Shown: positions 33,128-43,345, counted from the stretch's first letter. The stretch is 61,760 nucleotides of DNA from a virus (IMGVR_UViG_3300009610_000010:1-61760); one strand, 5' to 3'. Numbers and translations are program-made. The notes: generated by a model from the sequence alone, not told the origin.

Positions 33128-34696
33128 TTACGCCACCTCCTGTGGGCTGGGCACCAGGTGCAGCGGCACGACGCCCCATTGGCCCTCGATCGAGTAGCCG
33201 CGCAGCGTGCCCGCCTTGATTTGCTCCCACGCTTCGGGGTGCCAGCGCACGCCCATGACCCATGAGCCACGCGGAAAGTCAGGATCACCGGGCCGCGCGA
33301 TGAACGATTCCACCACGTGCCCGGATGGAGCCCCGTCTTTCATGCGCAGCCCGGTAATGTGCATTAGGTTGGTGCCACCCTTGCGGGCGTTGAACTCGTG
33401 CGCCATCTTGCGCACCTCAGTTTCGGTGGCGTACTGGCCTTGTAGATCGACTTCCCAAGGGGCGTACACCACGTCGTAGGTGATGCGGTCGGTGGCTTCC
33501 TCGGGGCGGTGCACAAACTTGCACTGCACGTGCAGCTTCACGGTGGGGGGCTCGGCAAAGCGCTTGATGATGCTGCGCCGGATCAGCCCGCCGGGGGCGA
33601 TGTCGGCCTTGGCGATGGCGAAAATGAGCGACCAGTTGTTGCGCACCCACTGCGCGGCACCCACCCCACCGGGCATGCTGTCGAGCACGCGCTTGGGGAT
33701 GTGCACGTCGATGATGTTCTTGTGGTTGCCCGGGCGGCCCAGCCCCACGCGCACAAAAGCGCCGCCCGAGTCGGGGATCTCGCGCTCCTGGATGTCGTCG
33801 TACCACTTGTCGGCATCGCGCCACCGGCTGATGCCCACGATGATGGTGCCCCCGGCTGAGGAGGTGACGACGCTCGGTGGGATGCCCTTGGTTTGCACGG
33901 TGCGCTGGGCCGCCGGGGCGCGCAGGTCGATGCGCTTGGCCGGGGCGGCCGGCGCCGGGGCCTGGGGCTCGGCCGGCTGCAGGTCGTACGCTTGGGCCAC
34001 GCCGCGCCAGGCAATCCCCTGGGCGTAGCGCTCGCTGTCGGGGTTGCCCGCCTTGCCAAAGATCGACAGGGTGCTCGTGTACATGCGGTCGTACACCTCG
34101 CGCCCGTACGCTGGCAGCCCGTCCAGGCTGCGCAGGGCCAGGGCAGTGGCGGCGGCAGTGCGCTCGTCCACGGGGGTGACCTCCTTGGTGGCCGGGGCGG
34201 CTTTGCCGGCGGCGGCCTCGGCGGCCAGGCGCTCGTTCACGCGCCCGAGCCGGTGGGCAATGCTTTCAAGCTGCCTGGGGTCGGCACGGCGTGCGGCGCC
34301 GCTCAGGTTCGCCAGCTCACGCACGGCGGGGTGGCTGCTGCCCAGGGTTTCGCGCGCGCGGGCGGCCGCCTGATCCACCAGGCCCCCCAGGCGGCGGCGC
34401 CCGGCTTCGGCCTCGGCCGGGGCCTTGGCACTGGCTACGGCCAACGCCACGGTCCGGGCCTCAAGGGCGGTGTTCGCAGCGCCGCCCGCGCCGTCGGTGG
34501 CAAAGCGACCCGTCTCGTCGCGCACGTACTCGCGCTTCAGCCCCTTGGGCACGGGCACGTTGGGCACGGGCACATCGGGTGGGGGCGGCATGGCGGGGGC
34601 CGCTTCTTCTTCCATGGCGGGCTCGCCAAGGGGCGGCCCCGTGTTGACGATGGTTCCGTCGGGCAGTGCCAGCTCGTGGTAGTGCTCGTCGGCCAC
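33128..34696 (-). CDS. Prohead protease, XkdF-like C-terminal domain
   Basis: C-terminal ...YAPWEVDLQGQYATETEVRKMAHEFN..NLMH...VVESFI...GSWVMGVRW..EAWEQIKAGTLRGYSIEG matches my memory of the XkdF/S78-like family. GTG start. Confidence 0.6.
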   Translation of the reverse strand: MADEHYHELALPDGTIVNTGPPLGEPAMEEEAAPAMPPPPDVPVPNVPVPKGLKREYVRDETGRFATDGAGGAANTALEARTVALAVASAKAPAEAEAGRRRLGGLVDQAAARARETLGSSHPAVRELANLSGAARRADPRQLESIAHRLGRVNERLAAEAAAGKAAPATKEVTPVDERTAAATALALRSLDGLPAYGREVYDRMYTSTLSIFGKAGNPDSERYAQGIAWRGVAQAYDLQPAEPQAPAPAAPAKRIDLRAPAAQRTVQTKGIPPSVVTSSAGGTIIVGISRWRDADKWYDDIQEREIPDSGGAFVRVGLGRPGNHKNIIDVHIPKRVLDSMPGGVGAAQWVRNNWSLIFAIAKADIAPGGLIRRSIIKRFAEPPTVKLHVQCKFVHRPEEATDRITYDVVYAPWEVDLQGQYATETEVRKMAHEFNARKGGTNLMHITGLRMKDGAPSGHVVESFIARPGDPDFPRGSWVMGVRWHPEAWEQIKAGTLRGYSIEGQWGVVPLHLVPSPQEVA

Positions 34697-34713
34697 TTGT
34701 CTCCTCGCCTCTT

Positions 34714-34751
34714 AAACGAAAGCCCTGCCCGCCATCGCTGGCGAACAGGGC
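34714..34751 (-). terminator. Hairpin plus U-tract (terminator/attenuator) upstream of the protease gene
   Basis: On the - strand: GCCCTG-TT-CGCCA-GCGA-TGGCG-GG-CAGGGC followed by TTTCGTTT. Confidence 0.5.
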
Positions 34752-34828
34752 TGCGTGAGCCGCGCTCAGGAGGTACATCCCCGGGACGGGGGCGATGCCA
34801 TCCGTTTACGTGCCGCGCATGGGCCGTG

Positions 34829-35152
34829 TCAAGGGGTTTTTTCGTTGCCGTTGGTGGCGCCTGGGCCACCGGGCTGCTGGAGTATCCAGGCGCGGCGCTC
34901 GCGGCAGCGGCGGCAGTGGGCCACCACGGTGCCAGGGGGGTGCTGGGCAGCGCCGGTTTCGGGGTCTACGTCGGGGGGCAGGATGACCACGGTGGTGCCG
35001 GCGGGCACCTCTATCAGCAGGGCCCCGCACTTGAAGCACTCGACGCGGGCCAGGCCGGGCTCGCGGGTGGCGGGGGCAGCGGGCCAGCCCTCGCGCTCCA
35101 GCCGTTCGCGGCGACGGGCCAGGCGCTGTTCCAGTCGCTTGCGGCTGAGCAC
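34829..35152 (-). CDS. Small zinc-ribbon protein (~107 aa)
   Basis: CFKCG...HCRRC. GTG 35152 lies just after the MuF stop. Confidence 0.45.
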   Translation of the reverse strand: MLSRKRLEQRLARRRERLEREGWPAAPATREPGLARVECFKCGALLIEVPAGTTVVILPPDVDPETGAAQHPPGTVVAHCRRCRERRAWILQQPGGPGATNGNEKTP

Positions 35153-35157
35153 ACGCT

Positions 35158-37140
35158 TTACTCGTCCTCTGACTGCGCTGGGCCAGGGCCAAAGTGCCGC
35201 GCAAACCACTCGCCGAACGGGTGGCTCGCCACCACTTGCGTGGGGTCACGAATCTCCACCACCTCGGCGTAGCGCTTTTCGTCCTCGGGAAGCTGAAAGT
35301 CCAGGTCATCCACTTCACTCGGTGGCGGCGGGCGAATACCCGGTGGCAGGTCGGGGTCGCGCCGCTGGTCGCGCGCAAACTCGGCTGGGTCGTTGGCACC
35401 ATCCCACACGTCGGCATCGCTCAGGGCCTGCTCGGCGCTCAGCACCGGGATCTCGGTGCAGCGGCAGTTGCTACAGACAATGCCTTGTGCGACAATCCAC
35501 CCCAGCGGGGATTGGAGGTCGTAGACGTGACCAGAAAACTCGAACTGCCGCACCTCGGCGACTGGATCGAAGAATACCTGGCCGGCACCTCGCTCAAAAA
35601 GATTAGCCAGCAGCACGGCGTTTCCCGCCCCGTTCTTATTCGCCGGTTCAAAGCGTGTGGCGTCGAGATTCGCGGCCGGTCCGACGCGGAGGTACTGAAG
35701 TGGGCCGCCATGAAGCTGGACCGTGGTGCTGTCGAGCGCCAATGCAGCGGGGCCTGGGTTGGGCGCCGGGGCAGGGTCGATCCCATGGAGCGTCGCACCG
35801 CTCGTGCTGTAACCCGGTGCATGCGCCTGCTCAATGTTGGTAAGCATGAGGTCCAGGTGGCCACTGCCCTGCAATTGCTCGGCGAAAACGTGGCGAACCA
35901 ACACGCCATCGGTGCTTACAACGTCGATCTGGCCCTGTGCGAACCGCGCGTCGCCGTGGAGGTCATCAACCAAAACTTCTCGCGCGCGCAAATCTCCTGC
36001 AAACCGCAGCGCGTTGAATACATCCTCGATGCTGGCTGGCTGGTCGTGTTCGTAGTCCACGACGCCAAAACGCGCGACCTGCCGTTCGCTTACGGTCGAG
36101 TAGCAGGCCAGATTGTCGCCCTGGCGCAACTCGCACGCAGGGATAAAGCCGCGCTCGGTCAATACGGGGTGCTGCGGAGTGACGGTCAGCCGGCGCCCCG
36201 TCCGCGCGGTGGTTACCTCAAGCATCGGCCCTACATATTCGACTCGTAGGCCAGCCTCGACACGGCCCGACACCTGCACAAACCCCGGGAAGCAGTTGCA
36301 CACTTGCTTGGCACTGCCGGCGGGGTCCAGCGGGTGCATCAGCTGCTCGCCCCCCACGTCGAATGGCTCGTCAATCTCGCGGATCTGCCCGTGCGCCTCG
36401 AAGTGGTCCTCGCGTTCCCTCCCGTCTAAAGTTGTTAGCCAGCGCTTGAACGGCACGCCAGTGACGTAGTAGGTCAGCCACTGGCCCTCCTCCACCACGG
36501 CGCCGGTTTCGGTGCGGGCGATCAACTCGGCCCGGCTTTGGCTCAGCCAGTCGAACTCCTCGGTCAGCGACTTGGCGACCTCGAACGGCCCCCGGCCCTG
36601 GAAGTAAAACTCCTCGGCGATGACCGTCTTCAGCCGCTCAAACACGTCGGCCGCCACGTTGCCGCTGAGCTGGTTGGCCCGTTCGAGCAAGGCATCGGCC
36701 ACTGCGGGGCTGCGCAGGTTGAACGAGCCACGCACGCCCAGAGCACGGCGCGCCGCGGTGCCCCCGACCTCGAACAGCTCGGGGTAGGCTTCGGCCAGGG
36801 TGCCCTCCAGCTCCAGCCGAAACGCGTCCTCCAGGTCGTCGGTCAGGTTGGCCACCAGGCGAAAGTCGTCGAAGTCGAACACTTCCTCCAGCTCACGGCT
36901 GCGCGTCGGGCCCAGCGGGCCACCTCCACGGCCCACGGCCTGCTTGGTGGCCAGCCGGTGGGTGGCGTCGGTGTGCAGCCGGCTGAGCACCCCACCGCGG
37001 GCCAGCTCGCGCACCACGCGTCGGCCGATCGTGTCGAAGTCGGCGGTCAGCTGGGCGCGCAGCTTCTTAGCGCGGGGGGCCAGGTTCATGGGGCGGCGCA
37101 GCACGGGGCCGCGCTTCCAGTCGAGGGCGGGGGCGGTCAA
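35158..37140 (-). CDS. MuF / SPP1 gp7-type minor head protein interrupted by an intein
   Basis: ELIARTETGAV...WLTTLDGREREDHFEAHGQ...LMHP...VCN|intein|CRCTEIP is the canonical Mu F motif ending in NCRC. Start is TTG 37140 (TTGA overlap) or ATG 37089. Confidence 0.8.
   Translation of the reverse strand: MTAPALDWKRGPVLRRPMNLAPRAKKLRAQLTADFDTIGRRVVRELARGGVLSRLHTDATHRLATKQAVGRGGGPLGPTRSRELEEVFDFDDFRLVANLTDDLEDAFRLELEGTLAEAYPELFEVGGTAARRALGVRGSFNLRSPAVADALLERANQLSGNVAADVFERLKTVIAEEFYFQGRGPFEVAKSLTEEFDWLSQSRAELIARTETGAVVEEGQWLTYYVTGVPFKRWLTTLDGREREDHFEAHGQIREIDEPFDVGGEQLMHPLDPAGSAKQVCNCFPGFVQVSGRVEAGLRVEYVGPMLEVTTARTGRRLTVTPQHPVLTERGFIPACELRQGDNLACYSTVSERQVARFGVVDYEHDQPASIEDVFNALRFAGDLRAREVLVDDLHGDARFAQGQIDVVSTDGVLVRHVFAEQLQGSGHLDLMLTNIEQAHAPGYSTSGATLHGIDPAPAPNPGPAALALDSTTVQLHGGPLQYLRVGPAANLDATRFEPANKNGAGNAVLLANLFERGAGQVFFDPVAEVRQFEFSGHVYDLQSPLGWIVAQGIVCSNCRCTEIPVLSAEQALSDADVWDGANDPAEFARDQRRDPDLPPGIRPPPPSEVDDLDFQLPEDEKRYAEVVEIRDPTQVVASHPFGEWFARHFGPGPAQSEDE
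35467..36294 (-). mobile_element. Intein (276 codons) in the MuF NCRC motif
   Basis: Cys1 (CFPGFVQV), block B LTVTPQHP, block F/G GHVYDLQSPLGWIVAQGIVCSN, +1 Cys. In frame with both exteins. Confidence 0.75.
35527..36249 (+). CDS. Putative homing endonuclease (HTH + Vsr/DUF559-like PD-(D/E)xK core) encoded antisense inside the intein
   Basis: GGAGG 8 nt upstream of GTG 35527. HTH: LAGTSLKKISQQHGVSRPVLIRRFKACGVEIRGRS. Nuclease-like: EVQVATALQLLGENVANQHAIGAYNVDLALCEPRVAVEV...RVEYILDAGWLVVFV. Confidence 0.55.
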   Translation: MTRKLELPHLGDWIEEYLAGTSLKKISQQHGVSRPVLIRRFKACGVEIRGRSDAEVLKWAAMKLDRGAVERQCSGAWVGRRGRVDPMERRTARAVTRCMRLLNVGKHEVQVATALQLLGENVANQHAIGAYNVDLALCEPRVAVEVINQNFSRAQISCKPQRVEYILDAGWLVVFVVHDAKTRDLPFAYGRVAGQIVALAQLARRDKAALGQYGVLRSDGQPAPRPRGGYLKHRPYIFDS

Positions 37141-37670: not shown

Positions 37671-39552
37671 CGTTGGCTCCTACCGGTGGGGCCAGGCGGC
37701 GCCGATCGCTGCGCATGCGCTCGCTGATGGTGCCCACCCCGGCGCGCAGCTGCCCCAGCTGGTCGGCCGTGGTGCTGCGCTCGCGCGTGGCAGCGGCCCG
37801 GCCGGCGGCCTCGGTCAGGCTGCCCAACAGGCGCCGGGCCCCGGGGCTGCCAGCGGTGGCAGCCACGCCCACGCCCTGCTCGCTGCCATCGTCACCACCG
37901 GCCATGAGCACGGCGGCCTTGAGGTCCACCAGCTTGGTGGGCATGCTGGCCCACGGGTCGGGGTCGGGCGGGAAATCCTGGTTCTTGACGATGCGGCTGG
38001 CCGCTGCCCGTATGTCGTTGATGCTCAGGGCGCCGGTGCTGGCCAGCACGCTCACGATCTGCGCGTCGCGCAGCTCGTCCACGGTGTCGTACTCGTTGTA
38101 CTGGAACCGCACCATGGGCAGCAGGCGCAGGTCGAGGATGATGTTCCAAAAGGCTTCGAGCATTTCCTGCCGCGGCTCGATCTGGCTGCGCTTGTACGTC
38201 TCGTCCTGGGTTTCGCCGCTGCCCGTGCCCAGACTCGCCGTCTCGATGATGCCCAGCTTGCTGGGCAGCATGCGATAGACGTGGATGATGTTGTCGCGGT
38301 TGGTTTGCTGGTAGTCCGCCCACTCCTGGTCCTTGGGCTCACCGCCCAGCTTTTCGAAGACGATTTCCACCTGCTCGATCGGCACCTTCAGCGTCATGGT
38401 GCGCTGGTCGTCGCCCTCGATCATGTACCGCATGTGGTCCTCGATGGTGTGCTGGATGCCATCGAGGATGCTCTTGCTGTCGGGGTTGGCAAAGGCCGCC
38501 GTGGGGGCCTTGATGAACACCACGTAATCGGGCACCCCGCGGTTGATGAAGAACCGGATGTTGCGGTTCGAGGCCAGGATGTTGCCCACCAGGCTGTTGA
38601 GCGCGGCCACGATGGGCGGGATGCCGTAGTAGCGCTCGGCCGGGTGGTAGTGCTTGAAGTCCACCAGCTCGCGCTTCAGGTCGCCAAAGCGCTGGCCCTT
38701 TTGCAGCTGCGCCCCGTGGGGCAGCCCGGCTGCCACGGCGATGGCCTCCTCCCGGCTGATGTAGGCCCACGGCGTGTCGGTGTCGATGCGCCCCTGGGCC
38801 AGGGCCGAGGGATCGAGCGGGGCGACCTCGGCCCCGAAACGGCGGAAGAAGGCCGCGGGGCGCCCCAGCTCGTCCAACTGGGCAAACGTGGTGCCGTCGA
38901 AGCCCCGGCGCACCAGCCGTGCCAGCACGTGTATGAGCTGCGTGGGCAGGTCCGCGTCGTCGCGCACGATCTCGATGTGCGCCTGCCCCGTGCTGTCGTA
39001 GTCCTTGATCAGCAGCTGGCTGAACGTGCTCACGGGGATGTGCTGGTCGTCAAAGTCACGGGTCATGCTGTCGAGCAGGCGCTCGGCCTCGGCGCGCTGG
39101 GCGTCGGCGGCGGTGTCCTCCAGGGCGGTGGGGGCAATGTCGGTGCCCTCGGGGGCGCCCTCCTCGGTGTCCACCAGGCGCCACCCACTGGCCGCATCGA
39201 GGGCGAACTGATCGACCACGGCGAAGTAGGTGTGCGACTCGAACAGCAGCCCAGCCAGGGTGTCGAGGTCAAACGGGGGCTCGGCGTACAGCCCCATGAT
39301 GGCGGCGACTTCGCCGGGCGGCTCGGGCCGGCTCACGCGGCCGGGTGCGGGGTCGCCATCGGCCTTGGCCTGCTGCTGGCCGCGGTGGCGGTCGCGTACG
39401 GTGCCGGGGGTGCGCAGCCCGAGCAGGGGATAGTTGGTGGGCAACTCGTGGTAGCGCTCGGCGGTGGTGCTCTCGCGGATGACCACGCTGTGGGCCTCGG
39501 GCGGCTGCAGGGCGGGCGGGGCGGGCAGGGGCGGGGCGCCGCGGGTGATCAT
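37654..39552 (-). CDS. Portal protein
   Basis: ~630 aa. YYGIPPIVAALNSLVGNILASNRNIRFFINRGVPDYVVFI core motif. Start ATG 39552 after GGGGGAAA. Confidence 0.8.
   Translation of the reverse strand: MITRGAPPLPAPPALQPPEAHSVVIRESTTAERYHELPTNYPLLGLRTPGTVRDRHRGQQQAKADGDPAPGRVSRPEPPGEVAAIMGLYAEPPFDLDTLAGLLFESHTYFAVVDQFALDAASGWRLVDTEEGAPEGTDIAPTALEDTAADAQRAEAERLLDSMTRDFDDQHIPVSTFSQLLIKDYDSTGQAHIEIVRDDADLPTQLIHVLARLVRRGFDGTTFAQLDELGRPAAFFRRFGAEVAPLDPSALAQGRIDTDTPWAYISREEAIAVAAGLPHGAQLQKGQRFGDLKRELVDFKHYHPAERYYGIPPIVAALNSLVGNILASNRNIRFFINRGVPDYVVFIKAPTAAFANPDSKSILDGIQHTIEDHMRYMIEGDDQRTMTLKVPIEQVEIVFEKLGGEPKDQEWADYQQTNRDNIIHVYRMLPSKLGIIETASLGTGSGETQDETYKRSQIEPRQEMLEAFWNIILDLRLLPMVRFQYNEYDTVDELRDAQIVSVLASTGALSINDIRAAASRIVKNQDFPPDPDPWASMPTKLVDLKAAVLMAGGDDGSEQGVGVAATAGSPGARRLLGSLTEAAGRAAATRERSTTADQLGQLRAGVGTISERMRSDRRRLAPPVGANGGPAA
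37802..37867 (-). repeat. 66-bp perfect inverted repeat, copy B (partner 91..156), inside the portal C-terminal region
   Basis: Exact reverse complement of 91..156. Encodes the same 22 aa in the portal frame. Confidence 0.95.
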
Positions 39553-39794
39553 GGTTTCATTTCCCCCAGGCGGCGGCACCGGCCTGGCGGGGGCCCGGCA
39601 TCGACGCAAAACGCTTCGACCATGGCCCGTTGGCGCCACTCGGCGGCCACGTCCAGCACGTCACGCCGCAGGCGCGCGTCGCTCACCCGGGGCACGGCCG
39701 GCCTGCTCGGGCGCCCGTAGCCGTAAACGGCACGGTAGGCACGCATCAGCGCTGCCAGGCGCTTGTACGGGTTGGCCTCGGGCTCGTCACTCAT
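39549..39794 (-). CDS. Hypothetical protein (81 aa)
   Basis: ATGA overlaps at both ends. Confidence 0.5.
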   Translation of the reverse strand: MSDEPEANPYKRLAALMRAYRAVYGYGRPSRPAVPRVSDARLRRDVLDVAAEWRQRAMVEAFCVDAGPPPGRCRRLGEMKP

Positions 39795-40075: not shown

Positions 40076-40551
40076 CGTGGGGCCACGGGGTCGGGCCGGC
40101 GCTCGCCCGGGGTGGGTGTCGTGCCGGCATAGGTGTAGGGCTCGGGCCCGGGGGCCATGGGCACCTTTGCCAGCCCCTGCTGCTCGTTCATGCGGGCCAG
40201 GGCAGCGGTGATCGCGGCGAGCTGCGATTCGAGCGTGGCCATCTTGGCGTCGGCCGGCGCCATCGCCCCGGTGCCGTAGTTGCTGGTTTGGGGCAGCAGC
40301 TCGGTGCGCTGCGTGGGCGCAGCCCCGGTGGGCAGGCGGGCCTCGGCTGCATCGGCGTAGGCCAGCATCTCGCGCCCCAGGCTGCGGATGGTGCGCACCT
40401 CGTCGGGGCCCGAGTCGGCCGCCGCAGGCATGAGCACCACGGCGGGGGGGGTGTCGGAAAAGCGCAGCACCAGGCCCAGGGCCCGCAGCGCGGCGTGCTG
40501 CCGATGGTACTCCATGGCCTGGTCCTCAAGCGACAACTGATCGGGATTCAT
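40072..40551 (-). CDS. Hypothetical protein (159 aa)
   Basis: ATG start; overlaps the upstream gene end by 26 nt. Confidence 0.5.
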   Translation of the reverse strand: MNPDQLSLEDQAMEYHRQHAALRALGLVLRFSDTPPAVVLMPAAADSGPDEVRTIRSLGREMLAYADAAEARLPTGAAPTQRTELLPQTSNYGTGAMAPADAKMATLESQLAAITAALARMNEQQGLAKVPMAPGPEPYTYAGTTPTPGERRPDPVAPR

Positions 40552-41335
40552 GGCTCTCCTTTCGTTTGCGCGTGTCGCGCAGGCGCAGGTCGTATGCTAC
40601 GGACTTCTTGCTGGTCACTACCCGGCACAGCCCGGGGTACATGCGGGCCATTTCCAGGCACCGGTCCCGGATGGCTTCCGGGGTGCGCGTTTCCTGTAGT
40701 CCACCAGGCTCCTTCCAGTAGGCCGTTTTGGCGGTGATCCAGTTGACTCGCACCAAGGCACCATCCGCAAGGTAGCACTGGATGCTGCGCTCGAAGTCGT
40801 CCTTTGGGTCGCCCGCCTCTAGACCCGTGAGTTGGCGTGCCGGGTCGGTGCCCCAGTTAATGCAGCCGTAGAAGCACCCAACGATGTAGCACAAGCCGAA
40901 TGTGATCGTTGGTGACATATAGAAGGGATTGGCAGCGGCGTACCCACCCCATAGCTTCGCCCTTGTGCGGTGACAGGCCAGGAAGGCCGAAGCCACCAGG
41001 TCCTGCCAGGTCGTGGCGTCGATGCTTTCCAGCTTTCCGGCCCGCACGATGCGAATGTCCTCCACGTCATCATCGAACGACATGAGCTGCACGCCGGGCG
41101 GGTACGCTGCATGCAGAGCATTCCGGTTGCGGGCACAGCCCAGCGCCCCCGCACGCACCTCGACTTCGCCGTAGCCAGCGGCGTCCAGTGACGAGCGGTA
41201 GCCAGCGACCTCATCGGGTGCCGTGAAGACACTAATGGTTGAGCGGGCTGCGCCCAGCCGGTCGAGCAAGGGAAGCGTTTTCCGGGTGACCGTTTCGGCG
41301 CGCTTGTGGCTCGGAATGGCCACGGGCGGATGCAA
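40526..41335 (-). CDS. GT-A fold glycosyltransferase adjacent to the TET/JBP gene (candidate DNA-base glycosyltransferase)
   Basis: N-terminal VAIPSHKR beta1 motif and SFDDDVED (DxD). Immediately downstream of the dioxygenase. TTG/GTG start is ambiguous. Confidence 0.55.
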   Translation of the reverse strand: MHPPVAIPSHKRAETVTRKTLPLLDRLGAARSTISVFTAPDEVAGYRSSLDAAGYGEVEVRAGALGCARNRNALHAAYPPGVQLMSFDDDVEDIRIVRAGKLESIDATTWQDLVASAFLACHRTRAKLWGGYAAANPFYMSPTITFGLCYIVGCFYGCINWGTDPARQLTGLEAGDPKDDFERSIQCYLADGALVRVNWITAKTAYWKEPGGLQETRTPEAIRDRCLEMARMYPGLCRVVTSKKSVAYDLRLRDTRKRKESHESRSVVA

Positions 41336-41337
41336 TG

Positions 41338-42306
41338 CTACTCGCCCCGGCCAAAGTCGGCCTGCTTGGCCACGGCAGCACCACGCTGCCGCTCCTCAGC
41401 CGGCGTACCGCACTCGGCCATCTTCGTGCGGTAGTAGAGCACCAGCGTCATGCGCTCGAAGCGCTTGTGGAGGCCATCGTATGGGCTGGTACCGTGCCAC
41501 TCGTGCGGGTCGAAGAACAGGGCGTCACCCGTGTTGAGTTCGATGGCCAGGCGGTACTTGGGTAGCACCAGGTGGCCACCGGTGAACTGCCCGGATCGGA
41601 TCATCACCAGGTTCGAGAACCCCGGCTTGTAGTCACCGTCGTCCTGATGGGTGCCGCACTGAAAGTTACGATTCACGGTGATGGTGGAGAAGCACGTGCC
41701 GCCCACCAGCCACTGCGGGCAGGTCCGGTTGGCGATCTCCCGCTGTGCTGCCCAGCGATCAGGCACGGCATAGGCCATCAGCTGCTCGACTTCCCTTGCC
41801 AGGGGCACGACCGACTTTAAGCACTCCTGATTAACACCATTTGCCGAGGCGGCACGGCAGTATGGCCGGCGATCATCGCGGTCAAGGCAGCCAACCACAT
41901 CAGATGAGCCAAGGCGAAGATGGCGTGAAACGTGATTTGGGATTCTATTTGTTTTGCTGCGCACGACGGTGCCGTTGCGGTTAACTGCCGGGTAGCCCTT
42001 TAGTGTTCGCCCATTGCCATCACGCCCAGCCGCGCTACCACGGTTTAGTGGTGCATGGGATAGGCCACGCAGCCCACTCCAGGCCATGCCCAACGCACCG
42101 GCTGAGAGCGCGCCGCGCAGCACCACGAACAGCGTGCTGCCGTCGATCCGCAGCCCCCGGATCGAATCGCCATCCATGCCCAACACCTCGTCGTACCAAC
42201 TGGGCTCGGGCCGGAAGCCGCGCAGCGCTTTGGCTTCCTTTTCATCCAAGGCGGCGGTCACGCCCATTTCACGCACCCGCCCGGGGGCAAAGCTGGGGGC
42301 CAGCAT
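41338..42306 (-). CDS. TET/JBP-family 2OG-Fe(II) dioxygenase
   Basis: HxD in CGTHQDDGD; LVLPKY; EWHGTSP followed 10 aa later by RMTLVLYYR. This parallels the ELHATTP...RISLVFYQH arrangement of TET enzymes as I remember it. Confidence 0.7.
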   Translation of the reverse strand: MLAPSFAPGRVREMGVTAALDEKEAKALRGFRPEPSWYDEVLGMDGDSIRGLRIDGSTLFVVLRGALSAGALGMAWSGLRGLSHAPLNRGSAAGRDGNGRTLKGYPAVNRNGTVVRSKTNRIPNHVSRHLRLGSSDVVGCLDRDDRRPYCRAASANGVNQECLKSVVPLAREVEQLMAYAVPDRWAAQREIANRTCPQWLVGGTCFSTITVNRNFQCGTHQDDGDYKPGFSNLVMIRSGQFTGGHLVLPKYRLAIELNTGDALFFDPHEWHGTSPYDGLHKRFERMTLVLYYRTKMAECGTPAEERQRGAAVAKQADFGRGE

Positions 42307-42308
42307 TG

Positions 42309-43097
42309 CTATGGGCTCCGTGGATCGTCTGGCATGCCATCGGCCGCGAAGCCCAGCGCGGCCAGCACAATGTCAGTGGGGTTTTCGAGGCCAGCAGCGT
42401 TACCAACCTGTCGCATCAGCCCTTTGAACTCGGCCAGCTGGTTGTCATCCATGATCAAACGCACGCTGCGCACGTTGCTGTCCACCGGGGGCTCAAAGTC
42501 CCCCGCCCCCTGCTCCACTCCGTAGTCGCGCGCCGCCCCGGGAACAAACTCCAGCACCTTGCCAGGGTAGAAGATGTCCTCGAAGCGCAGCGCTGCAAAC
42601 AGCGTCTCGGGCATGCTGTCGCGCGCTGCCATCAGAAGCTCGGTCGTGCGCTCGTTGAACGTGCCCATCAGGGCGTCGTTGTTCAGGGTCAGGTTCAGGG
42701 CCTTTTCCCGGCCCTCGTCCATGTCCACCACCGTCACCACGCACAGCTCGGTGCCGGCGGCCTGCATGGCCTTGAGCCGCTGGTGGCCACCCACCACCCG
42801 CTGGGTGCGGCGGTTCCATACGATCGGCTCCACCAGGCCAAACTCCTGCAGGCTGCGGCGCAGCCCGGCCAGGGCCTCGGGCGTGATGGTGCGCGGGTTG
42901 TACTCGCTGGGGCGCAGGTCGGCCACCCGGCGCACTTCGAGCCGCATGCCCGCGAGGTCCACCGCGCTGGGGCCCTGGGGCTCGGTCAGTACTTGGGCGG
43001 CGACTTCTTCGGGCCCTTGGGCTTGGGGGGCTTCTTGGGGGCTGGCTTTTTCTTGGGCGTGGCCATGGATCGGTCCTCCTCCTGTAATGGGGCTCAT
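42309..43097 (-). CDS. ParB/Srx-like N-terminal domain protein
   Basis: LRPSEYNPR...GLVEPIVWN...VVGGHQRLKA motifs. ATGA overlap start. Confidence 0.6.
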   Translation of the reverse strand: MSPITGGGPIHGHAQEKASPQEAPQAQGPEEVAAQVLTEPQGPSAVDLAGMRLEVRRVADLRPSEYNPRTITPEALAGLRRSLQEFGLVEPIVWNRRTQRVVGGHQRLKAMQAAGTELCVVTVVDMDEGREKALNLTLNNDALMGTFNERTTELLMAARDSMPETLFAALRFEDIFYPGKVLEFVPGAARDYGVEQGAGDFEPPVDSNVRSVRLIMDDNQLAEFKGLMRQVGNAAGLENPTDIVLAALGFAADGMPDDPRSP

Positions 43098-43345
43098 GGG
43101 CGCAGCTCCTGCACGGTTTGCTCGGCCCAAAACTCGCCATGTGCGCACCGCACACACGGCGTGCCCAGCGGCTGCCCGTGCTCGCACTTGAGCGGCAGCG
43201 TGGGGGGCACGGTCAGCGAGCCGCCGTCGGCATCGGCCACGGCAGCCGAGTTGTAGCTGGCCACAAACCGCTCGTGCAGCAGTTGCAGCACACGTGCCCG
43301 GGCGGAAGGCGGCAGTGGCTGCAACAGCTTCAGCATGCGATTCAT
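43094..43345 (-). CDS. Hypothetical protein (83 aa)
   Basis: ATG 43345; C..H...C..C pattern near the C-terminus. Confidence 0.4.
   Translation of the reverse strand: MNRMLKLLQPLPPSARARVLQLLHERFVASYNSAAVADADGGSLTVPPTLPLKCEHGQPLGTPCVRCAHGEFWAEQTVQELRP

Follow-up and report, generated by a model that had tools for sequence, protein, structure and literature searches.

The window analysed here, a stretch of 61,760 nucleotides from an uncultured phage contig (IMGVR_UViG_3300009610_000010:1-61760; 61.8 kb, 67% GC), contains a minus-strand gene for a MuF / SPP1-gp7-family head-morphogenesis protein that is interrupted by a class-1 intein, and this intein encloses, on the opposite strand, a gene for a predicted Vsr/DUF559-like homing endonuclease. 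Very probably the two form a composite mobile element, in which the MuF intein and an antisense Vsr-like homing endonuclease with expression signals of its own would home together into intein-less alleles. The architecture was already published in 2025, and the window represents a divergent further example of it. Since the concept is on record, the value of the present analysis lies in confirmation, breadth and the detail of the expression signals: it adds tests of selection on the two frames, a phylum-wide distribution and an expression cassette embedded in the splicing blocks, the last of which we did not find described and which may be new. The features of the locus are as follows.

35158..37140, minus strand: MuF / SPP1-gp7-family head-morphogenesis (minor capsid) gene, 660 codons including the intein (Pfam Phage_Mu_F, PHROG)
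36295..37140, minus strand: N-extein, codons 1-282, ending ...GSAKQVCN; collinear with the intein-free contig L112 up to 36292
35467..36294, minus strand: class-1 intein, 276 codons, MuF residues 283-558 (splicing motifs; empty site in relatives)
35158..35466, minus strand: C-extein, CRCTEIPVLS... to the stop codon (alignment with intein-free relatives)
36100..36294, minus strand: N-terminal Hint lobe, intein residues 1-65 (purifying selection in the sense frame; confidence of the AlphaFold2 model, pLDDT, 59-87)
35560..36099, minus strand: sense-frame spacer, intein residues 66-245, stop-free and not selected as protein in the sense frame (pLDDT 22-48)
35467..35559, minus strand: C-terminal Hint lobe, intein residues 246-276, with blocks F and G and the terminal Asn (conservation, omega; pLDDT 66-87)
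35527..36249, plus strand: predicted antisense homing-endonuclease gene, 240 codons, GTG start, TAG stop; helix-turn-helix (HTH) plus Vsr/DUF559-like nuclease (homologs, omega, fold)
35554..35655, plus strand: predicted HTH DNA-binding module, residues 10-43 (AlphaFold2 helices 10-18, 23-30 and 34-43; HTH_58 and HTH_7 in family members)
35842..36177, plus strand: predicted nuclease core and C-terminal helix/strand, residues 106-217, with E108, Q125, YNVD134, AVE145 and R162 (AlphaFold2, profiles, conservation)
36100..36219, both strands: doubly constrained zone, residues 26-65 of the N-terminal Hint lobe (block B, TPQHP) opposite the endonuclease C-terminus, GQYGV (omega, alignment columns)
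35514..35529, plus strand: Shine-Dalgarno sequence GGAGG (35514-35518), 8-nt spacer and GTG start (35527-35529); reverse complement of the block F codons H-V-Y-D-L-Q
35468..35496, plus strand: putative sigma-70-type promoter, -35 TTGCTA (35468-35473), 17-nt spacer with TG (35488-35489), -10 GACAAT (35491-35496)

The MuF gene matches Pfam Phage_Mu_F over residues 181-283 of its product (E=2e-10) and the PHROG profiles for head protein (E=1.7e-48) and head morphogenesis (E=5.5e-30); an identical protein is on record (P0019). The insert reads CFPGF...LTVTPQHP...GHVYDLQSPLGWIVAQGIVCSN|CRC and carries the hallmarks of an intein, namely Cys1 (CFPGF), block B LTVTPQHP with its TPQH, block F GHVYDLQ and block G WIVAQGIVCSN with the terminal Asn, and the +1 Cys that follows it completes the MuF motif N-CRC. 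In penultimate position there is a Ser, not a His. Cys1, the terminal Asn and the +1 Cys are kept in all 64 of the related loci that are complete at both junctions. Against the Pfam profile Intein_splicing the window scores 22.8 bits, with a cut-off of 35.8 that is exceeded by the homologous loci L094 (42.8), L108 (46.0) and L100 (36.3). Taken together, the motifs identify the insert as a class-1 intein at the conserved N|CRC site, and splicing is predicted.

Alignment with intein-free relatives supports the same boundaries. In the MuF homologs P0020 (79% identity), P0021-P0024 and P0026-P0028 the insert is absent and NC(R/G)C is contiguous, reading through ...SQVCNCRCTEIPVV... or ...VCNCRCTEIP.... 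P0020 is encoded by L112, a 63-kb contig that shares synteny and 76-84% nucleotide identity with the window; the alignment of the two ends at window position 36292 and restarts at 35471, L112 itself being contiguous there with the empty site GTATGCAAC|TGCCGCTGCACC. The break falls exactly at the intein ends, which upholds the insertion point proposed in an initial annotation of this DNA, made from the sequence alone. The presence of the intein is polymorphic among the closest relatives of the window phage. Among the related loci, L030 and L031 are 100% identical over the intein and downstream of it; on the N-extein side, starting right at the N-terminal junction, their identity is only ~80-87%. 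For the pair L073/L059, the endonuclease-coding middle is ~70% identical and the flanks ~90%. Such patterns suggest that recombination had its breakpoints at the intein or within it, and with the empty site and the presence/absence of the insert they are indirect signs of mobility. A different intein was seen at a second site in another MuF homolog, P0025 (...FKRWL|C...VVHN|STLDGKERED...), upstream of the N|CRC site.

The plus-strand open reading frame (ORF) is enclosed entirely by the intein, and its GTG at 35527 stands 8 nt past the GGAGG. Since (36294-35527) mod 3 equals 2, sense codon position 1 pairs with antisense position 3, and the two frames are reverse complements of each other codon by codon. 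For the MuF gene, the intein, the plus-strand ORF, the GGAGG/GTG pair and the frame relation, ORF listings and translations reproduced all of the coordinates and motifs of the initial annotation. Long antisense ORFs are typical of high-GC DNA, and because the window has 67% GC, an open plus frame alone is no evidence for a gene. The same frame is already open from 35194 (to 36249), and other long plus-strand ORFs are found at 33893..35272 (459 aa), antisense to the protease and MuF genes, and at 38281..39720 (479 aa), antisense to the portal gene. GC content by codon position leaves the coding strand undecided: at third positions of the sense frame it is 0.71 in the intein and 0.89 in the N-extein, and for the three positions of the intein sense frame it is 0.72/0.45/0.71.

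Comparison with homologs gives a clearer picture. Proteins of ~240 aa homologous to the plus-strand product share 30-69% identity with it. A database of 5.8 billion proteins contains 18 full-length homologs (~236-250 aa, 32-47% identity), some of them named very-short-patch-repair endonuclease, and a profile search of 1.84 billion representatives of clusters formed at 50% identity gave 1,325 matches at E<=1e-30 and 2,922 at E<=1e-10. A total of 189 related loci (GC 0.38-0.74) were collected from three sources: metagenome and NCBI contigs, 160 viral contigs (the 80 best matches from each of two sets, one of 238 and one of at least 531) and 23 bacterial genomes or metagenome-assembled genomes. 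In 189 of 189 the opposite strand is open over the whole match, including loci of 38-50% GC. A sense-frame ORF aligns to the intein of the window in the first 82 loci (66 distinct sequences), and all 66 distinct loci have the insert at the same MuF site, ...N|C...N|C(R/Q)C. The exteins of the 10 genome loci scanned were MuF, portal-MuF fusions or VG15, and the hosts belong to Actinomycetota, Pseudomonadota, Chloroflexota, Bacteroidota and others. No free-standing relative of the endonuclease clade occurs among these 189 loci, of which the viral ones are the best 80 of each set of matches. Relatives carry 1-4 tandem copies of the N-terminal HTH and range from ~236 to ~420 aa; the clade with two copies is commoner still in viral contigs (at least 531 matches) and, in the best 80 of these, always lies antisense inside an open frame. 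A search for loci of a four-HTH representative, P0062, yielded no confirmed locus. Blastn of the region against GenBank phages gave no nucleotide match, and relatives are detectable only at the protein level.

Evolutionary constraint was examined on both strands. The sense codons TTA, CTA and TCA are stops on the antisense strand; they account for 1 of 15,931 codons in the overlap (intein residues 26-255) as against 565 of 32,387 (17.4 per 1,000) in the exteins of the same genes. In the low-GC loci the overlap contains none in 5,995 codons, where ~179 would be expected, and antisense stops return directly beyond the ends of the ORF. The initial annotation had also considered homologous inteins that preserve only the sense frame and accumulate stops on the other strand; the counts point the opposite way. 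The single antisense stop found, in the endonuclease frame of one of the 66 distinct loci (alignment columns of intein residues 76-85), may mark a decaying copy.

Column by column, the sense frame is the better conserved over intein residues 1-65 and 246-276, and the antisense frame over residues 66-245, where the BLOSUM score of the sense frame is ~0. The ratio of nonsynonymous to synonymous substitution (omega), calculated pairwise by the Nei-Gojobori method for ten moderately diverged pairs, follows the same division. In the intein middle (residues 66-245) omega is 0.6-1.2 in the sense frame and 0.13-0.45 in the antisense frame, and sense codon position 1 is the most variable; the comparison of the window with L003 gives 0.92 and 0.36, respectively. 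In the exteins and the outer Hint ends, sense omega is 0.05-0.3, antisense omega is near or above 1 in most comparisons, and position 3 is the most variable. The N-terminal Hint lobe (residues 1-65) has a sense omega of 0.05-0.4. Within it, residues 26-65 show omega below 1 in both frames, fewer changes at all three codon positions and per-column conservation of both frames. Amino-acid constraint on both strands, as estimated from these comparisons, is confined to ~150 bp (intein residues 26-65 and 246-255); over the remaining ~540 bp protein-level selection appears to act on the antisense frame alone, the sense frame merely being kept stop-free. The initial annotation had proposed dual constraint over about 720 bp, and this holds for the openness of both frames but not for amino-acid constraint, which reaches the smaller extent just given. 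The comparative evidence is decisive in identifying the predicted plus-strand ORF as a real gene.

The AlphaFold2 model of the plus-strand product (mean pLDDT 88.5) begins with three helices that form the HTH, continues through a helical linker into an alpha/beta core and ends in a C-terminal helix. A Foldseek search of this model against the PDB returned as top match 3r3p_A, the catalytic domain of I-Bth0305I (probability 0.99, TM score 0.64 on the target), followed by 3hrl and by 1vsr, the Vsr protein of E. coli. The profile of the endonuclease family matches PDB 3HRL, a DUF559 protein, at E=3.4e-5, while there was no HMMER-level sequence match of this profile to 3R3P. Among 19 family members, Pfam matches were obtained to MTES_1575 (13/19), HTH_58 (8/19), DUF559 (5/19) and HTH_7 (4/19). 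Six residues are invariant across the 66 loci and all are present in the window, namely G129, Y131, N132, D134, E145 and R162, and E108 is near-invariant in the family. These data support a predicted HTH plus Vsr/DUF559-type nuclease. The domain assignment made from the sequence alone is borne out in this respect by Pfam matches in the members, by the profile match to 3HRL and by both structural analyses, and a lack of any profile hit, which that annotation would have counted against itself, was not encountered.

The sense-frame product of the intein middle (residues 66-245) gave no Pfam or PHROG domain. In the AlphaFold2 model of the intein the Hint lobes are rich in beta structure (pLDDT 59-87), and residues 67-238 have a pLDDT of 22-48. 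The absence of a recognisable endonuclease motif from the sense middle, noticed previously by eye, agrees with the domain scans, the sense omega of 0.6-1.2 and this low model confidence.

The start of the endonuclease gene lies opposite block F of the intein, and the codons of the splicing blocks seem to double as its expression signals. Aligned upstream of the antisense ORF, most loci read (T/C)TGGAG(A/G)TCnTAnAC-ATG. The reverse complement of the block F His codon is the start codon, CAT giving ATG and the CAC of the window giving GTG, and the D-L-Q codons give (T/C)TGGAG(A/G)TC, a Shine-Dalgarno sequence. The His is encoded by CAT in 43 of 49 loci and by CAC in 6 of 49, the window among these, against a CAT background of 44%; the block F Leu is encoded by CTC in 48 of 55 (background 27%) and, in low-GC loci, in 19 of 20 (background 16%).

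Further upstream, the putative promoter is the reverse complement of the Ser-Asn|Cys junction (-35) and of block G codons (-10), and its register is fixed across loci; perfect TTGACA-18-TATAAT sequences occur in L041, L048 and L064. Compared with shuffles that preserve the sense protein and the codon usage of each locus, and that leave the kinship of these related loci uncorrected, the observed -10 score was 4.92 against a shuffle mean of 3.74+-0.16 (maximum 4.16), with 20 loci scoring >=6 against a mean of 2.0 (maximum 7). The combined -35/-10 score was 8.02 against 6.51+-0.23 (maximum 7.12), and 10 loci reached a combined score of >=10/12 against a mean of 1.4 (maximum 5). A simple promoter/terminator scan of 35000..36500 found nothing at its thresholds (9/12 for promoters), and the element emerged only from the comparison of loci. 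By these measures, synonymous-codon bias maintains the predicted start codon, the Shine-Dalgarno sequence and the -10/-35 boxes. It is somewhat more probable than not that the whole endonuclease expression cassette is hard-wired into the splicing blocks, so that splicing and endonuclease expression are mutually locked, and that the family is an obligately intein-nested clade, stable across many phyla. If so, few long antisense gene overlaps in prokaryotic viruses would be as well supported or as widespread.

A scheme for the operation of the element can be proposed. On the sense strand, the two Hint lobes would be joined by a spacer of ~180 codons that need only stay stop-free; the insert would be translated within MuF and excised by protein splicing, restoring ...VCN-CRC.... 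On the opposite strand, codon-for-codon against the intein, a free-standing endonuclease of 240 aa would be encoded. Its transcription would most likely start at a sigma-70-like promoter of its own and its translation would use the Shine-Dalgarno sequence and start codon, all of these signals lying antisense to the C-terminal Hint lobe. When phages co-infect or a prophage is encountered, the enzyme may cleave MuF alleles that lack the intein, around GTATGCAAC|TGCCGCTGC, and repair from the occupied allele would copy the intein and the endonuclease together (homing).

Several explanations compete with this scheme. The plus-strand ORF could be a by-product of high GC, its homologs mirroring the conservation of the sense-strand intein. 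The GC content of the window, the plus frame open over 35194..36249, the comparable antisense ORFs over neighbouring genes and the indecisive third-position GC would suit this explanation; it is nevertheless extremely improbable, given that the frame is open in all 189 loci, including those of 38-50% GC, that no antisense stop was seen in low-GC loci against ~179 expected, and that such stops return directly beyond the ORF boundaries. Substitutions in the middle also peak at sense position 1, with omega far lower in the antisense frame, and it is the antisense product, not the sense middle, that models as a known nuclease fold. A truly dual-coding 720 bp, in which sense residues 66-245 also encode a functional domain such as a degenerate in-frame endonuclease or DNA-recognition region, would accord with a locally high sense identity (0.32-0.45 over residues 86-135, falling to 0.16 at 96-105), with the few short strands and helices of the AlphaFold2 sense model and with Hint lobes that are short for a complete Hint domain. 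We consider this very improbable: the sense peaks coincide with the most conserved columns of the antisense nuclease core and are weaker than those, sense omega is 0.6-1.2, pLDDT is 22-48, and neither Pfam nor PHROG scans revealed a domain there. An endonuclease domain in the sense frame was a finding that the initial annotation had named as contrary to its proposal. A fractured gene with a split intein, of the type described by Dassa et al. (2009), is brought to mind by automatic gene calls that split MuF and keep the antisense ORF (as in L002) and by the first discovery of Vsr-like endonucleases in such loci. It was rejected as next to impossible, the gene being a single continuous ORF of 660 codons with a continuous sense frame in the window and in 189/189 loci; moreover, the endonuclease lies on the opposite strand and overlaps the Hint-coding sequence, instead of standing between two genes.

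The antisense gene might also be real and yet not, or no longer, serve as the homing endonuclease of this intein, being instead an inactive remnant, a DNA-binding protein that regulates the head operon or a nuclease directed against competing phages. Such a role would fit the lack of a conserved Vsr/EDxHD catalytic His and the sub-threshold Pfam scores, an antisense transcript over a late head gene could itself be regulatory, and some groups of VSR-like inteins look vertically inherited (Gosselin et al., bioRxiv 10.1101/2025.01.02.630785). It is unlikely in view of the purifying selection on the nuclease core, with D134, E145 and R162 retained in the window, of the strict association of the protein with one intein at one site across many phyla, of the presence/absence pattern with a precise empty site in the closest relatives and a mosaic breakpoint at one intein junction, and of a nearest structural relative that is a bona fide homing endonuclease. 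The composite mobile element is the preferred reading, and certain observations weigh against it. Besides the kinship of the loci used in the shuffles, the promoter match of the window itself is 8/12 plus TG, and it was scored against the sigma-70 consensus, which may not be that of the host. The Foldseek E-values are modest (0.017-0.2). The window protein falls under the curated Pfam cut-offs (MTES_1575, 18.8 against 38.2; DUF559, 13.4 against 20.6) and only the family profile is supportive, so that it should be regarded as a distant relative of DUF559/MTES_1575 and not as a member. No His column corresponding to the general base of Vsr/EDxHD enzymes is conserved, the window having NQNF where some relatives have His, and the catalytic mechanism may therefore differ from theirs. 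The AlphaFold2 model of the sense frame was built on an alignment of five sequences only, and since the conserved Hint lobes total ~100 residues, part of the spacer may add strands to the Hint fold.

The initial annotation knew of no intein with an oppositely oriented endonuclease, and needs correction here: VSR-like enzymes are known in MuF-like inteins (bioRxiv 10.1101/2025.01.02.630785), and LAGLIDADG cases, among them the cyanobacterial dnaX intein, were noted earlier (Gorbalenya 1998 and Gogarten 2002, as cited in the same preprint). Gosselin, Arsenault & Gogarten (bioRxiv 10.1101/2025.01.02.630785) reported actinophage inteins with antisense LAGLIDADG or VSR-like endonucleases; inteins of minor capsid proteins carried only non-canonical endonucleases, the VSR-like enzyme had an HHpred match to 3R3P, and the entry 'minor capsid, MuF-like, IPR006528, VSR -1 ORF' in their supplementary table covers Malisha, Vivi2, Angelicage, Affeca, Fosterous, Sejanus, REQ3 and others. 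The window has the same organisation, a contiguous class-1 intein in an IPR006528/MuF protein with an antisense VSR-like endonuclease similar to 3R3P, and the same insertion site, the consensus of the Vivi2 cluster being ...ATCAAC|TGCCGGTGC and the window reading ...TGCAAC|TGCCGCTGC. It differs in its distance from the actinophage examples: tblastn of the window ORF matches Fosterous, Affeca, Vivi2, Angelicage, Malisha and Sejanus at only ~32% protein identity over 86-93% of its length, and there is no nucleotide match to GenBank phages. The same search also matches phages of Pseudomonas, Cronobacter, Vibrio and Aggregatibacter/Haemophilus, and with the prophages of many phyla these extend the family beyond actinophages. 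A word search of the main text of the 2025 preprint gave nothing on ribosome-binding sites, start codons, promoters, synonymous-site analysis or frame-specific selection.

The frame-specific pattern of omega has a counterpart in the cyanobacterial dnaX intein, in which omega is low in the endonuclease frame and raised in the overlapped intein frame (Phillips et al., bioRxiv 10.64898/2026.09.14.751524). The endonuclease frame differs from that of the intein in both systems, but the fold here is Vsr-like, not LAGLIDADG, and the element resides in MuF genes of phages instead of dnaX of cyanobacteria. The first descriptions of Vsr-like homing endonucleases came from fractured genes (Dassa et al. 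2009, PMC2677866) and group I introns. With the Vsr-like/EDxHD enzymes, including I-Bth0305I (3R3P), the predicted protein shares the alpha/beta fold, an N-terminal DNA-binding extension and an association with mobile intervening sequences in phage genes. Those enzymes, however, are encoded by free-standing genes between split-intein halves or in group I introns, without antisense overlap with an intein, and the conserved set found here (E108, Q125, D134, E145 and R162) lacks the Vsr/EDxHD His. DUF559/MTES_1575 (3HRL) is the best sequence-profile relationship of the family; the window protein departs from these in lacking a DG..H segment behind the catalytic Glu, in its N-terminal HTH and in a C-terminal tail co-encoded with Hint block B.

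To our knowledge, few long antisense overlaps between genes are solidly documented in bacteria and phages. In the present locus ~720 bp are read on both strands and frame-specific selection is directly visible. The arrangement supports the idea that mini-inteins can be invaded by free-standing endonuclease genes in either orientation, after which the control signals of such a gene can become fused with the coding sequence of the splicing domain. The family also offers compact Vsr-like endonucleases, whose recognition sites are predicted to be long. For annotation, the consequence is that phage records miss the endonuclease and some metagenome gene callers break MuF instead. In the GenBank phage records MH976510 and MK511015 MuF is annotated and the endonuclease omitted; the gene caller applied to L002 (1296..3058) kept the antisense ORF and split MuF into genes of 234 and 84 aa.

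Two further observations concern the surroundings of the locus. The MuF protein of L112 (716 aa) has a C-terminal extension of ~1.3 kb that is missing from the window (window 35163..35175, L112 7158..8443). The sequence 'EREYTRDEAGRFSE' within this extension resembles 'REYVRDETGRFATDG' near the N-terminus of the product of the next gene in the window (33128..34696, Peptidase_S78_2), which suggests that domains were shuffled where MuF and the protease adjoin. The minus strand of the window (40526..43187) carries, upstream of the portal gene, three adjacent genes, for a TET-associated glycosyltransferase (TAGT, E=2e-9), a Tet/JBP 2OG-Fe dioxygenase (E=1.3e-18) and a protein with a ParB_N domain; this trio is also present in the syntenic L112. 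It looks like a cytosine-hypermodification module, and the phage DNA, including the target of the endonuclease, may therefore be modified.

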